This document shows positions 115 to 5,380 of a stretch of DNA of 8,079 nucleotides, in pieces. Positions within the stretch are counted from its first letter, which is position 1, and each line of letters opens with the position of its first letter. Source of the stretch: a virus (Duplodnaviria; Heunggongvirae; Uroviricota; Caudoviricetes); IMG/VR virus record IMGVR_UViG_2657244943_000011; one strand, written 5' to 3'. Position numbers and translations under genes: made by a program. The notes beneath the pieces were generated by a model. It did no database searches. It was not told the origin of the DNA and saw only the letters and a list, made by a program, of their open reading frames with translations.

Positions 115-190
115 GCCGATATAGCTCAGTTGGTAGAGCAGCGCATTCGTAATGCGAAGGTCGTAGGTTCGACTCCTATTATCGGCACCA
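115..190 (+). tRNA. thrW: tRNA-Thr (anticodon CGT)
   Basis: 76-nt cloverleaf read directly: acceptor stem GCCGATA pairs with TATCGGC, D-arm GCTC-AGTTGGTA-GAGC, anticodon loop TTCGTAA (anticodon CGT, reads ACG), T-arm GTAGG-TTCGACT-CCTAT, encoded CCA at 188-190. Matches my recollection of E. coli thrW, a known island integration site. Confidence 0.9.
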
Positions 191-200
191 TTCTAATGTC

Positions 201-356
201 TCCCCAAGTCTACTCAAGTATTTAAAAACCTCTTATAATCCGCATGTTAGCGCCCCTTTTAGTCTTTTGACGTCTACTTAAGTACCCCAAAATCTACAGT
301 CAATTGGGGGTACTTTTGGGGGTATTTGCTGTTCAGTTTAGTGGAGGTACCCCCAA
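201..356. promoter_or_regulatory. att arm / integrase upstream region with clustered short repeats (probable integrase arm-type sites and int promoter)
   Basis: Direct repeats GTCTACTCAAGTA (208-220) and GTCTACTTAAGTA (272-284); CCCCAAGT at 202-209 and 351-358; GGGGGTAC (306-313) and GGGGGTAT (318-325) 12 bp apart; inverted partners GTACCCC at 282-288 and 348-354. Lies between the tRNA 3' end and the int start codon. Confidence 0.4.
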
Positions 357-1571
357 GTGAAACTCAATGCCCGTCAAATAGACACTGCCAAGCCAAAAGA
401 GAAGGCTTACAAGCTGGCTGATGGTGGTGGTCTGTATCTCTTGGTAAAACCTAGTGGAGGAAAATATTGGCGCTTCAAGTATCGTGTAGCTGGTAAAGAG
501 AAGCTGTTAGCACTAGGTGTGTATCCTGAAGTTACTTTGGCTGATGCTCGTGCAAAACGTGAAGAAGCTAAAAGGGGTATCGCTGGGGGTATCGATCCGA
601 TGGAAGCGAAACGAGAGGAAAAGATTGCCCGGGAAACGCAGTTAAACAACACCTTCAAAGATATTGCCCTTGAGTGGCACAGCAGCAAATTAAAAAAATG
701 GTCTGCTGGTTATGCTTCAGACATCCTCGAAGCCTTCAACAAAGATGTGTTCCCTTACATTGGCAAAAAACCAATCGCCGAAATCAAACCACTTGAACTG
801 CTGAATGTGCTGCGGCGCATCGAGGGGCGCGGTGCTACCGAAAAAGCCAAAAAAGTGAGGCAGCGATGCGGGGAAGTTTTCCGCTATGCAATTGTCACTG
901 GACGTGCTGAGTATAACCCTGCACCGGATCTCACCAGCGCGATGCAAGGTCATGAATCTAATCATTATCCTTTCCTCACAGCCAAAGAATTACCTGATTT
1001 TTTCAAGGCATTGTCCAGTTACTCAGGAAGTGCATTGGTTGTTATGGCGGCTCGTCTACTGATTATCACCGGTTTGCGGACTGGCGAACTGCGCGGTGCA
1101 TTATGGGATGAAATCGATCTCAACAAGGCTATCTGGGAGATACCTGCTTCACGGATGAAAATGCGTCGCCCTCATGTGGTGCCTTTGTCTAAGCAGGCTC
1201 TTTCGCTTATTGGGCAGATTAAAGAATTAACTGGCAATTATCCGCTTATGTTTCCCGGCCGTAATGATCCAAGGAAAACAATGAGCGAGGCTAGCATAAA
1301 CCAAGTATTTAAACGCATCGGCTATAATGGAAAGGTTACTGGTCATGGATTCCGGCACACCATGAGCACCATTTTGCATGAGCAGGGCTATAACACCGCG
1401 TGGATAGAGACGCAGCTCGCACACGTCGATAAAAACTCAATTCGTGGCACATACAACCATGCGCAATATCTGGATGGACGGCGGGAAATGCTTCAGTGGT
1501 ACGCCGATTATATGGATTCGCTCGAGCATGGCGGAAATGTGGTGCATGGTGAGTTCGGAAAATGCGGGTGA
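357..1571 (+). CDS. int: site-specific tyrosine recombinase, P4-type integrase
   Basis: 404-aa ORF, GTG start at 357 with GGAGG 10 nt upstream, TGA stop 1569-1571. N-terminus MKLNARQIDTAKPKEKAYKLADGGGLYL...KYWRFKYR is typical of the P4/CP4-57 integrase arm-binding domain; C-terminal catalytic motifs present (TGLRTGELRG box I, HGFRHT box II, Tyr-containing GTYNHAQYLDGRREM). Directly downstream of a tRNA in the same orientation. Confidence 0.9.
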   Translation: MKLNARQIDTAKPKEKAYKLADGGGLYLLVKPSGGKYWRFKYRVAGKEKLLALGVYPEVTLADARAKREEAKRGIAGGIDPMEAKREEKIARETQLNNTFKDIALEWHSSKLKKWSAGYASDILEAFNKDVFPYIGKKPIAEIKPLELLNVLRRIEGRGATEKAKKVRQRCGEVFRYAIVTGRAEYNPAPDLTSAMQGHESNHYPFLTAKELPDFFKALSSYSGSALVVMAARLLIITGLRTGELRGALWDEIDLNKAIWEIPASRMKMRRPHVVPLSKQALSLIGQIKELTGNYPLMFPGRNDPRKTMSEASINQVFKRIGYNGKVTGHGFRHTMSTILHEQGYNTAWIETQLAHVDKNSIRGTYNHAQYLDGRREMLQWYADYMDSLEHGGNVVHGEFGKCG

Positions 1572-2724: not shown

Positions 2725-2922
2725 ATGTCAAATACGCTTATTCGTTTAACAGAAGTTCAGCGTAGAACTGGATATAGCAAGGCATGGATTTATCGCCTTA
2801 TGGGGCAAGGTAAATTTCCTGCATCAGTTAAAATTGGCTCGCGAGCTATTGCTTTCGTTGAGAGTGAAATTGACGAGTGGATTAATCAGCGTATTGCTGA
2901 ATCACGCGGAACAGCTACCTGA
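2725..2922 (+). CDS. alpA: AlpA-family (phage Vis/excisionase-like) helix-turn-helix transcriptional regulator
   Basis: 65-aa ORF with GAGGT 6 nt upstream of ATG 2725. Sequence MSNTLIRLTEVQRRTGYSKAWIYRLMGQGKFPASVKIGSRAIAFVESEIDEWI matches the AlpA/Vis HTH pattern as I recall it. Its position after a P4-type int is typical of CP4-57-like and PICI-like islands. Confidence 0.85.
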   Translation: MSNTLIRLTEVQRRTGYSKAWIYRLMGQGKFPASVKIGSRAIAFVESEIDEWINQRIAESRGTAT

Positions 2923-3000: not shown

Positions 3001-3801
3001 ATGAAACTGCGAAAAACGCCCGTACAGGGGCAGGGCTTCGTTCGGCCTGAAAACCAGAATCTGCAAAATTTCGGCGAAATTATCCCGGTTATTTCCGGCG
3101 TTATTGGCGGGCGTGAAACCAATATTGTTAGCGGCAGAGCGTTGCATAAGGCGTTAGGTGTAGGTCGCGTTTTCCGTTCGTGGATCAAGGGGCGCATTGA
3201 AGAATACGGCTTCACGGAAGGCGTGGATTATGAGGTTGTTGAATATTTGAGCCGACCCGATCCGGTGAGCGCAAAATCTCGCCAGCAAACAGCTCTTGAG
3301 TACATCATTACCGTGAACATGGCGAAAGAACTGGCGATGGTCGAACGCACCGAACAGGGGCGCGCCGTTCGTCAGTACTTCATCAAATGCGAGGAAGAGC
3401 TACACAAGGTTGCGCCTGTACGTTCCGCAGCGTTACGCCGGGAACTGAAAGCCCGTATCACAGTTGCCAGCTACTTTAAGCCAATGTGTGCCGCGCTGGA
3501 GGACTACCGGGCTGAACTGGATAAAAACACTCTACAGCACCACTACACCACGGAAGCCAATATGCTGGCGCGTATCGTGCTGGGTGGCATGACTGCAAAA
3601 CAGTGGGCGCAGGTGAACGGCATCACAGGCGAACCACGCGACCACATGAGCACGTTGCAGCTTGAGCACCTTTCTTACCTTGAGCAGAGCAATATCACGC
3701 TGATTGAGTTAGGCCAGGACTACCACCAGCGGAAGGCTGAATTAATTCGTCTTTCGCAGCGTTGGTTAGCCCGTCGCATGGAGGAAAACAGCCATGTGTA
3801 A
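3001..3801 (+). CDS. phage antirepressor-like protein (AntA/AntB N-terminal domain type)
   Basis: 266-aa ORF, AGGAG 6 nt upstream of ATG 3001, TAA stop 3799-3801. Segment RALHKALGVGRVFRSWIKGRIEEYGFTEGVDYEV...ITVNMAKELAMVERTEQGRAVRQYFIKCEEEL resembles the AntA-type antirepressor N-terminal domain from memory; not verified by search. Confidence 0.6.
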   Translation: MKLRKTPVQGQGFVRPENQNLQNFGEIIPVISGVIGGRETNIVSGRALHKALGVGRVFRSWIKGRIEEYGFTEGVDYEVVEYLSRPDPVSAKSRQQTALEYIITVNMAKELAMVERTEQGRAVRQYFIKCEEELHKVAPVRSAALRRELKARITVASYFKPMCAALEDYRAELDKNTLQHHYTTEANMLARIVLGGMTAKQWAQVNGITGEPRDHMSTLQLEHLSYLEQSNITLIELGQDYHQRKAELIRLSQRWLARRMEENSHV

Positions 3802-4260
3802 CGCTCTGACCGTTACAAAAAGAGAAAGCGCCCCGTTGCCGGAGCGCCTTTGTGAACGAATAGCCTACTGCGCCATATTGCTTACTGTCTACGAGGCAGA
3901 TTATAGCGTTGTGGTCGCACAGAGTGAAGGCGCTGATCACCGTTACTACAGCACGCCAGAAATGCAGAATATTTTGCTGCAAAATGCCGTTGGCCACGCT
4001 GTCCGGAAAGCAAAAAATTTTGCTGGTGGCGCGACTGATGCGATTTTGTCAGGTCGCCAGGTGCTGATCAATCTGATGTCTGATTTCGTTCTGGATAAAA
4101 CAAAGGCGACCGCAGAGAGCCGCCAGTGGAAAAGCTACATACTTGAACGCATCACCAACAATGCCACATTTGCGGCTGGTGGGCAATGTGTCAGCTTTGC
4201 ACCAATGACTCTAGGTTTAACTGAGGGTCATTATGGTGAATATGCTGGCTTGCTGGTGGG
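3794..4260 (+). pseudogene. uncertain ORF / possible gene remnant; good start signals but no credible stop (frame runs on to 5380)
   Basis: ATG 3794 overlaps the upstream stop (ATGTGTAA) and has TGGAGGA 8 nt upstream, the same coupled-junction architecture as real genes downstream. The first ~140 codons look protein-like; beyond about 4200 the translation becomes Cys/Ser-rich and then runs antisense through the minus-strand gene at 4519-4824. The end coordinate is arbitrary. Confidence 0.2.
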
Positions 4261-4518
4261 CTATTCCTGCTCTTTAACATCGCCATGCCGCGATGTTTTC
4301 CAGGTATGCGACCCCATTTTTGTGCGCCTGTACTCTTTAAGGAATTTCTCAAGGATAAACGCACAGGGCGCGAATCTGTCTGACTCATGCTCGTACGCTA
4401 TCTTTCTGCGCTGTCTTTTCCGTGCCGGTGATGGTGTATTGGTTGATTCTTTGTTGGTCATGGCGCTGCCCTGTAAAACGATGCACCGTAGTTCCTCACA
4501 CCACGGCGCTGGTGATGG

Positions 4519-4824
4519 TTACTCCTGTTCTTTGGCCTTGCGCCGCTGGAGTTCTTCACGCGCGACGGTGACGAGTTGCCCGATCTCCTCGGCTGCTTTG
4601 ACACCGATTTTTTCCACCTGCGCCAGTGCATCGAGCGAAGAAACCAGGGGATTTTCTCCGCTTCCTTCTGCCTGGCGGCGGGCGATTTCACCGCGAACGG
4701 CTGTAATCACGAAAGCGGCTATTGTTTCCCCTTCCGTTTTCGAATTTTCCATTTCCTCGATTACATCATGGGGGAAGCGGATATTTTTCATTTGCGATCT
4801 GCTGTTGATGTTTCCTGTTGCCAT
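4519..4824 (-). CDS. putative ribbon-helix-helix (Arc/MetJ/CopG-like) DNA-binding regulator
   Basis: 101-aa minus-strand ORF with well-formed composition, unlike the plus-frame translation of the same DNA. N-terminal KNIRFPHDVIEEME followed by helical GETIAAFVITAVRGEIARRQA fits a beta-strand/helix/helix RHH pattern. Divergent from the small-gene operon across a palindrome-rich intergenic region. Start could be ATG 4824 or the internal ATG 4791; neither has a strong SD. Confidence 0.5.
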   Translation of the reverse strand: MATGNINSRSQMKNIRFPHDVIEEMENSKTEGETIAAFVITAVRGEIARRQAEGSGENPLVSSLDALAQVEKIGVKAAEEIGQLVTVAREELQRRKAKEQE

Positions 4825-5014
4825 CAGAATGTCCGGTTATTTTGAGGTGTGTACACATTACACCAAAAGGTGTGTTGATAAAACACTTGACACTGTAGCA
4901 CACTTAAATCTAATCTGTGTATACACTAATGATTGTGGTGTATATACAGCAACGCCCCGCAGTGGTGGCACACATGCAGGGCGTCTAACCAAACCGTTAA
5001 ACGAGGTAACGATT
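4825..5014. promoter_or_regulatory. divergent promoter/operator region with three perfect 10-bp palindromes
   Basis: TGTGTACACA (4848-4857), GTGTATACAC (4917-4926), TGTATATACA (4939-4948); additional GGTGT/ACACC half-sites; consensus -35 hexamer TTGACA at 4887-4892 and TTGATA at 4875-4880. AT-rich relative to flanks. Confidence 0.5.
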
Positions 5015-5380
5015 ATGGCTGGAACACAGCATACCCAAACTCACCCTAAATTTATATACACCTTCCTGGCGGTGCACCGTGATTGCATAGCTGACGGTAA
5101 AAACACTGTACACGTAGCCGCTGATACGCTGGTTGATGCCTGCGAGATGCTCAATGACATGGGCTATATCTCGGCAACATGGAAAGGGCGCGAAGAAAAC
5201 ACGCTGTTTATTCAGAAATGCGAGAACAATTTTATCTGGCGTTTTATCGCCCTGAGCACAGCACAACCGCGCGTAATTCACATCGAGGCCACCAGCGAAC
5301 AGGAAGCGCGTCAGCAATCTCCTGATGGCTGCGTGATGGTATTCGCTGCCCGTATTCGCCAGGAGGTGCACCATGCATAA
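5015..5380 (+). CDS. hypothetical protein (first gene of small-gene operon)
   Basis: ATG 5015 with GAGGT 7 nt upstream, TAA stop 5378-5380; 122 aa. In frame with the run-on ORF 3794-5380 but with its own initiation signals. Stop overlaps the next start. Confidence 0.6.
   Translation: MAGTQHTQTHPKFIYTFLAVHRDCIADGKNTVHVAADTLVDACEMLNDMGYISATWKGREENTLFIQKCENNFIWRFIALSTAQPRVIHIEATSEQEARQQSPDGCVMVFAARIRQEVHHA

Follow-up and report, generated by a model that had tools for sequence, protein, structure and literature searches.

The DNA considered here, hereafter the window, is a stretch of 8,079 nucleotides (nt) from the IMG/VR virus record IMGVR_UViG_2657244943_000011. It starts with the proA–thrW region of Escherichia coli and the left end of an island of around 15.5 kb that resembles the phage-inducible chromosomal islands (PICIs); over its first 1,600 bases it shares 100% identity with E. 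coli ARS-C301 and 99.9% with strain 55989. The single tRNA gene that ARAGORN detects in the window, thrW, is followed by int, which encodes a tyrosine integrase (Int) of the P4 family, and further downstream by alpA, which encodes an excisionase and regulator (Table 1). The spacer between thrW and int is crowded with short direct and inverted repeats. On the basis of comparisons with homologous loci, this spacer is very probably the P′ arm of attL, an attachment site belonging to a PICI-like island integrated at thrW, and would carry arm-type sites for Int together with hexamers for AlpA, the recombination directionality factor (RDF) of the island.

Table 1 Features of the window that bear on integration (position 1 is its first base)
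Feature	Position	Strand	Description
thrW	115–190	+	tRNA-Thr(CGT), integration target (ARAGORN and RefSeq annotation of the identical E. coli locus)
Core identity block	174–192		TCCTATTATCGGCACCATT, tRNA 3′ end; common to attL and attR, contains the crossover region
tRNA–int spacer	191–356		166 bp, between thrW and int
Block A	198–223	+	Three direct hexamers in 10-bp phase: GTCTCC (198–203), GTCTAC (208–213), degenerate GTATTT (218–223); probable RDF (AlpA) sites
CCCCAAGT copies	202–209; 351–358
13-mer copies	208–220; 272–284		GTCTACTCAAGTA; GTCTACTTAAGTA; pattern GTCTACT(C/T)AAGTA
Candidate −10 box of int	234–239	+	Perfect TATAAT, weak −35 TACTCA (211–216); read from the sequence; between the hexamer blocks
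Block B	272–297	+	Three direct hexamers in 10-bp phase: GTCTAC (272–277), degenerate GTACCC (282–287), ATCTAC (292–297); probable RDF (AlpA) sites
GTACCCC copies	282–288; 347–353
P4-type int promoter position	287–316	+	−35 CCAAAA (287–292), −10 TACTTT (311–316), 18-bp spacer; both weak
P′1, putative arm-type integrase site	304–315	+	TTGGGGGTACTT; 113 nt past the tRNA CCA end; conserved, co-varying
GGGGGTA-type pair	306–313; 318–325		GGGGGTAC; GGGGGTAT; starts 12 bp apart
P′2, putative arm-type integrase site	316–327	+	TTGGGGGTATTT; 12-bp tandem with P′1
P′3, putative arm-type integrase site	347–356	−	Inverted (GTACCCCCAA on the + strand); abuts the int start; own-class copy in homologues and P4
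int	357–1571	+	P4-family tyrosine integrase (Pfam), GTG start, 404 amino acids
alpA	2725–2922	+	AlpA/Vis-type excisionase and regulator, candidate binder of the hexamer blocks; Pfam Phage_AlpA (PF05930), 2.4e-19

Repeats of the spacer and their conservation

The repeats between thrW and int are non-random. With up to one mismatch, GTACCCCCAA has 4 matches in the window compared with 0.43 expected, a count reached in 0 of 200 shuffles, and all four are confined to 75 bp (282–356). The 13-mer GTCTACT(C/T)AAGTA, with up to two mismatches, has 4 matches in the 41.6 kb around the island (locus L002, from an identical E. coli island) compared with 0.67 expected; 1 of 100 shuffles reaches this number and the 13-mer alone is marginally above chance.

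A scan of one genome per species yielded 79 loci with integrases that are 61–100% identical to that of the window, from around 25 genera of Enterobacterales; in 63 of them, a tRNA gene was detected ahead of int. The tRNA–int distance is 162–166 bp in 48 of the 63, and the targets are Thr-CGT, Arg-TCT, Arg-CCT, Gly-CCC and SeC tRNAs. Upstream of int the loci are organized alike: the tRNA is directly followed by three hexamers, and beyond an A/T-rich stretch come three further hexamers in 10-bp phase, then the tandem pair and the inverted copy. Across the genera, the arm and hexamer sites keep their position and phase while the flanking bases diverge. The satellite phage P4, the type member, fits the same geometry, with its P′ pair 112 nt after the tRNA CCA end compared with 113 nt in the window.

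A preliminary description of this DNA had reported a dense cluster of repeats made up of four motif sets (the 13-mers, the GGGGGTA-type pair, the GTACCCC copies and a duplicated CCCCAAGT), and each set is present as described (Table 1). The copies do not all carry the same weight. Homologous spacers retain the tandem pair, the inverted copy at 347–356 and GTCTAC at 208 and 272; GTACCCC at 282–288 and CCCCAAGT at 202–209 are not conserved there.

Putative arm-type sites of the integrase

Members of the TTGGGGGTA family occur in the spacer as a tandem pair (304–327) and an inverted copy (347–356), the latter placed between the ribosome-binding site GGAGG (343–347) and the GTG start codon (357). 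The homologues have a pair with a 12-bp period, at about −52, in almost every locus with a detected pair, and around 21 bp further on an inverted copy of the same motif that touches the start codon. The motif falls into classes: TGGGGGTA (G5T), TGGGGGCA (G5C), GTGTATAG, TTGTATAG (with GTATAG among the classes) and GGGGGCC. Within one locus, tandem and inverted copies are always of the same class. Among 48 distinct loci with a G-run, the base after the run is T in all three copies in 29 and C in all three copies in 19, and no locus is mixed (48/48 concordant). The longest reverse-complement match between the tandem motif of a locus and its own start-proximal region is 7.9 nt on average, compared with 5.9 ± 0.24 nt when the inverted regions were shuffled among loci (1,000 shuffles, maximum 6.7 nt).

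Motif class also follows the integrase. All 35 T-class (GGGGGT) loci have Leu at residue 50 of Int (window 504–506) and all 23 C-class (GGGGGC) loci have Arg or Lys, a rule that holds in 58 of 58 loci overall; at residues 29 and 53 the classes are almost as cleanly distinguished. A neighbour-joining tree splits the C-class loci into several clades interspersed with T-class loci, and P4, which lies outside the 79-locus set, obeys the rule with TGGGGGCA repeats and Arg at the aligned position. Motif class does not track AlpA: proteins that are 70–87% identical to that of the window occur with the G5T, G5C and GTATAG classes. Because the copies co-vary, and because their class follows residue 50 of Int and not AlpA, the GGGGGTA/TACCCCC motifs are predicted to be the arm-type sites of the integrase, an assignment that these comparisons support.

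Residue 50 may determine the specificity of the DUF4102 arm-binding domain, as may residues 29 and 53. We tentatively propose that the choice between Leu and Arg or Lys at residue 50 sets which base, T or C, is recognized directly after the G-run in an arm site, as a simple natural code, and that the doubled motif described in helper-embedded PICIs (HE-PICIs; below) may be a further class of P4-type arm sites. A possible fourth arm site at 282–291, which matches at 9 of 10 positions, was judged doubtful, as it is not conserved and fills the middle slot of block B.

Recurrence at the far end of the island

The core block recurs at L002 35646–35663 as TCCTATTATCG-CACCATT, a copy of window 174–192 minus one G, and native thrW downstream sequence comes next; this copy of the tRNA 3′ end, followed by native sequence, identifies the position as attR. 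The tandem unit TTGGGGGTACTTTTGGGGGTAT (window 304–325) has a single further copy within the 41.6-kb locus, at L002 35563–35584, which lies inside the island and 61 bp ahead of the attR core. The motif is therefore present on both attachment-site arms. The preliminary description had suggested looking for these motifs at the opposite end of the island, and TTGGGGGTACTTTTGGGGGTAT was indeed found there, around 60 bp inside the attR core.

This arrangement is not restricted to one island. Nine further related islands have a same-class pair 59–63 bp from the attR core; in E. coli E21845 the P-arm pair is 60 bp from the core, and in E. coli strain 1283 both arms carry the variant TGGGGGCA in every copy, in an island with wholly different cargo (a relaxase and an Hxs system). 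In the other seven of the nine, homologue loci for which the fetched DNA included the far island end, a same-class pair precedes a partial copy of the tRNA 3′ end by 60–63 bp, and KplE1 and P4 likewise have a tandem pair at the far (P) arm.

Between the P-arm pair and the core, a sequence resembling the consensus of integration host factor (IHF), [A/T]ATCAA-N4-TTR with at most one mismatch, occupies a fixed place in 11 of 12 elements compared with 21% of shuffles; in the identical island it lies at L002 35617–35629, beyond the window. We do not claim an IHF site within the window, in which the one match with a single mismatch (211–223) overlaps block A and is not conserved.

In the identical E. 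coli island, one G of the acceptor stem is missing from the tRNA 3′-end copy at attR, and loci L042 and L049 have larger defects at the same place in the tRNA copy. Damaged tRNA fragments at attR have been reported as typical of PICIs (PMC10111431), and the acceptor-stem defect matches this type of damage.

Hexamer blocks and the excisionase

The remaining conserved repeats form two triplets of direct hexamers. The consensus of block A in the family, past the tRNA, is ..TCTCC..ACGTCTACTAAAGTCCACAAAA, and the family form of block B is GTCTAC-N4-[G/A]TCTAT-N4-ATCTAC. Block A has the position of the TorI I1;2 block in the prophage KplE1 and block B corresponds to the TorI I3;4;5 block; the starts of the two blocks are 64 bp apart in the window and 63 bp apart in KplE1. 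Direct repeats one helical turn apart are described as the usual pattern of RDF sites (PMC7498355). A search of the whole island for phased [G/A]TCTA[C/T] arrays found none beyond these.

In other lineages, every hexamer copy reads [G/A]TCAAC. The gene for the small excisionase lies around 2 kb downstream of int; an AlpA-type excisionase accompanies TCTA hexamers in 39 of 39 distinct loci, and the pairing of TCAA hexamers with a TorI-like excisionase holds in 10 of 11. Hexamer class thus follows RDF type in 49 of 50 loci, an association to which linkage could contribute. The hexamers are probably AlpA sites, because their class tracks the type of excisionase and because their layout matches the mapped TorI sites of KplE1; the [G/A]TCTAC triplets are, judging from these comparisons, most likely candidate cooperative sites of the AlpA/Vis-type excisionase of the island.

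The repeats had been put forward in the preliminary description as candidate arm sites of a P4-type integrase. For GGGGGTA/TACCCCC this proposal is borne out by the recurrence at attR and by covariation with the arm-binding domain. The 13-bp repeats are better taken as excisionase sites: they belong to helically phased hexamer triplets that track excisionase type and occupy the positions of TorI sites. Block A includes the first 13-mer, and block B includes the second as well as GTACCCC at 282–288; each 13-mer amounts to one conserved [G/A]TCTAC hexamer and the start of the next, lineage-degenerate hexamer.

Promoter and predicted autoregulation of int

The promoter of int must lie within the spacer, and hence within the P′ arm. 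Two positions come into consideration (Table 1). The TATAAT at 234–239 is kept as TATAAT or TATACT in thrW-type spacers. At the position homologous to the P4 promoter, which is also that of the KplE1 promoter, the homologues have a sigma-70-like promoter: 29 of 60 distinct homologue spacers have TTGAAA as the −35 element and, 18 bp further on, 47 of the 60 have a −10 element that matches at 4–5 of 6 positions and is formed by the end of P′1. Whichever promoter is used, Int bound at 304–327 and 347–356 would cover, or lie downstream of, the start site, and autoregulation is therefore likely.

Negative autoregulation of int by Int is plausible by analogy with P4, KplE1 and the pathogenicity island PAI I536. 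Repression of int by P4 Int and Vis, and by IntI of PAI I536, has been reported. Autorepression has been shown for IntS, IntC, IntL and IntF, and the tRNA–int arrangement known as ‘STI’ has been predicted to be autoregulated (Panis et al. 2010, PMC2951348); the window has this shape, with the tRNA and int both on the + strand and 166 bp of intergenic sequence. IntF of CP4-6 in E. coli K-12, although it also uses thrW, was set aside as a model, as it is a distant relative without upstream GGGGGTA sites and supports the general principle only.

Relation to characterized integration systems

One close likeness is to P4. Its GenBank record (NC_001609) labels the homologous repeats ‘attP arm sequence repeat’, in the same layout of one tandem pair with a 12-bp period per arm and an inverted copy that adjoins the start codon of int. 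The tRNA–int spacer is 163 bp in P4 and 166 bp in the window, and the motifs (TGGGGGCA and TGGGGGTA, respectively) differ by one base. P4 differs in its target (leuX), in its hexamer class ([G/A]TCCG) and in having a good CATAAT/TTGAAA promoter over the pair, where the window has only weak hexamers; the window-type island lacks the P4 genes sid, psu and delta.

The argW module of KplE1 (CPS-53), Sf6 and HK620 has the same order as the window: core, an RDF block of two or three sites, an RDF block of three sites, a tandem pair and one or more inverted sites. In KplE1, five TorI sites in two blocks, the second with three sites 10 bp apart, followed by IntS sites P′1–P′4, have all been mapped experimentally (PMC2951348). 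The −35 element of PintS abuts the last TorI site, its −10 element lies in P′1, and intS is repressed by IntS and TorI (PMC2951348). In the K-12 sequence, the tandem pair is GGGTAAAA-N3-GGATAAAA, inverted copies follow, the last of which overlaps the ATG, and the spacer is 161 bp; at attR, a GGGTAAAA pair lies around 60 bp before the core, as in the window island. KplE1 is unlike the window in its arm motif (GGGTAAAA), its RDF motif (GTTCG) and the closer packing of its four P′ sites; its RDF gene is at the far end of the element, which is a prophage and not a satellite.

In HE-PICIs, a doubled motif, tgTGTATTGCantgTGTATTGCa, has a 12-bp period and is present twice in the same orientation, −81 ± 2 and +132 ± 2 bp away from the centre of attP (Mageeney et al. 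2023, PMC10111431). The same study called this motif unique to HE-PICIs and named integrase arm domains, AlpA or another protein as its possible binder. The pairs of the window island are centred at about −80 and +132, close to these values, and both kinds of element have the Gram-negative PICI order of int, alpA, Bro/AntA and primase. The HE-PICI motif (also written TGTATTGC) differs in sequence from that of the window, in which the target is a tRNA gene. We consider the HE-PICI doubled motif and the arm pair of the window to be the same architecture.

The general scheme is that of phage lambda, in which a heterobivalent integrase works with Xis and IHF and has five arm sites, two on one side of the core (P1 and P2) and three on the other (P′1–P′3). 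The window island shares with it the 2 + 3 arm sites, an IHF-type site between the P-arm sites and the core, and an RDF with phased direct repeats. It differs in the family of the arm domain (DUF4102/Arm-DNA-bind_3, with an extra strand and helix), in the location of the RDF sites in the int-proximal arm and in the placement of the int promoter inside the attachment site.

Weighing the alternatives

Other explanations of the repeats were weighed against these data. The doubled GGGGGTA motif could be bound by AlpA or by another regulator of the island or host and act mainly as a transcriptional operator, as might be suspected from sites that overlie the int leader and start codon and from the open question of what binds the equivalent HE-PICI motif (PMC10111431). 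We consider this highly unlikely, given that AlpA proteins of almost the same sequence accompany three different motif classes, that the class follows residue 50 of Int without exception and that a pure int operator is not needed 15 kb away, fixed 60 bp from the attR core; moreover, the homologous repeats of P4 and KplE1 are annotated or mapped as Int arm sites. Less improbable, although still the weaker account of the hexamers, is that the GTCTAC-type repeats are a second class of integrase site, host-factor sites or promoter elements instead of RDF sites. Binding by AlpA is predicted only, block A overlaps a possible −35 element for the TATAAT at 234–239 as well as the IHF match at 211–223, and the association of hexamers with RDF type is broken by one locus (L021, below). 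The phased direct repeats have the form usual for RDF sites (PMC7498355), they agree with the TorI blocks of KplE1 in number, order and spacing, the switch from TCTA to TCAA takes place in all copies together and with RDF type in 49 of 50 loci, and the IHF match lacks conservation; these points favour AlpA sites. That the repeats arose by chance or base composition, or are functionless relics of slippage or duplication, has a negligible probability and is already refuted for the core sites by the comparative data. It draws on the unconserved copies at 282–288 and 202–209 and on the marginal excess of the 13-mer, and is opposed by a motif count that no shuffle reached, by the constancy of position and phase across the genera with diverged flanks, and by concerted changes that keep both the inverted and the tandem relationship.

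Several observations count against the reading of the spacer as a P′ arm with Int and AlpA sites. The int gene, attL and alpA lie within 2.6 kb, and the association of motifs with proteins could partly be co-inheritance. In locus L021 (Leclercia sp. EMC7) alone, TCTA hexamers are combined with a TorI-like excisionase; the hexamer block nearest the tRNA is eroded there, and the locus may represent a recent module swap. On the P′ arm, WATCAANNNNTTR IHF matches with at most one mismatch are not enriched (10% observed compared with 18% of shuffles). At the P4-homologous promoter position, the hexamers in the lineage of the window are weak (CCAAAA and TACTTT), and a promoter scan of positions 100–500 found no promoter on the + strand and did not call the TATAAT at 234–239; its match on the − strand points into the tRNA and was judged meaningless. 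An AlphaFold model of Int residues 1–95, made without an alignment, has a mean predicted local distance difference test score of 54 and allows a rough strand assignment only; in this low-confidence model, which is indicative only, residues 29 and 50–53 would fall on β-strands of the arm domain.

The island, its genes and its relatives

Int has the Pfam domains Arm-DNA-bind_3 (PF13356, N-terminal, 3.6e-29), Phage_int_M and Phage_integrase, and its arm-binding domain matches the solved structures PDB 3JU0 (6.3e-27) and 3JTZ (2e-21). It is 49% identical to IntS of KplE1 and 43% identical to P4 Int. AlpA is 37% identical to P4 Vis, and its similarity to TorI is weak. RefSeq annotation of identical E. 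coli genomes gives the gene order int, a hypothetical gene, alpA, antA, an Icd-like gene, a DUF927 primase gene, ProQ/FinO, PerC and cargo, and places the far boundary of the island before the yagP′/paoD genes. Gram-negative PICI satellites have a unidirectional int, alpA, a Bro/AntA zone and a primase, and no tail genes; the island shares this organization (RefSeq annotation of the identical island and Pfam). As judged from these genes and the target, the host element is a thrW-integrated, PICI-like island with a P4-family integration module. Its spacer was matched in 1,034 of 5,426 complete E. coli genomes (about a fifth).

Elsewhere in the window, an open reading frame (ORF) of 528 amino acids (3794–5380) has no Pfam match and no RefSeq annotation; RefSeq calls genes at 4261–4461 (−), 4519–4824 (−, YlcI/YnfO) and 4808–5380 (+, Icd-like) across it, and as a whole it is probably not a gene. 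The gap between the ORF at 1694–2497 and alpA is occupied by four perfect 11-bp palindromes, ACCCT(G/T)AGGGT (2513–2621), within direct repeats of 17 nt and 33 nt, and a degenerate extra copy lies near 2645–2655. Compared with 0.13 palindromes expected, the four observed were reached in 0 of 200 shuffles, and the array looks like an operator array that would control alpA.

Two relatives have unusual arrangements. In the thrW–vat island of E. coli Nissle 1917 (L003 1501–1990), the integrase is shortened to a pseudogene, one tandem arm site has been lost by deletion and the second altered by mutation to TGAGGGGAT, which appears to reflect decay of the attachment arm in an immobilized island. In strain 1283 (L008 33583–35000), the integrase module follows other mobile DNA (parA and prophage remnants) and not thrW itself; it is preceded by a second tRNA 3′-end copy and has the relaxase and Hxs cargo in place of satellite genes. 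The same att/int module therefore serves different types of element in tandem arrays.

Model and implications

Taking the spacer as the P′ arm of attL, we infer binding by the two proteins, the role of AlpA and autoregulation along the following lines. A heterobivalent Int would engage the core within the tRNA 3′ end (174–192) through its catalytic and core-binding domains, while its N-terminal domain would dock on the TTGGGGGTA sites: the pair at 304–327, the inverted copy at 347–356 and the second pair around 60 bp inside attR. Bridging of arm and core sites would assemble the intasome for integration and excision. The AlpA/Vis-type excisionase, on the hexamer triplets at 198–223 and 272–297, would bend the arm and direct the reaction towards excision. 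As the int promoter would lie within the arm, occupancy by Int, and probably by AlpA, would repress int, a negative autoregulation as in P4, KplE1 and PAI I536.

An arm of this kind, with a P4-like layout, is an ordinary and well-understood feature. The spacer can now be annotated site by site, which sets the true left boundary of the thrW island and tells which bases to mutate to lock or mobilize it. The comparison also links three previously separate descriptions, namely the arm repeats of P4, the attL map of KplE1 and the doubled motif of HE-PICIs, as one conserved architecture. This link and the residue-50 rule are modest additions that leave the understanding of how such integrases work unchanged. 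The residue-to-base rule for arm recognition is testable and, if true, would make arm specificity predictable from sequence and orthogonal integrase/att pairs designable.

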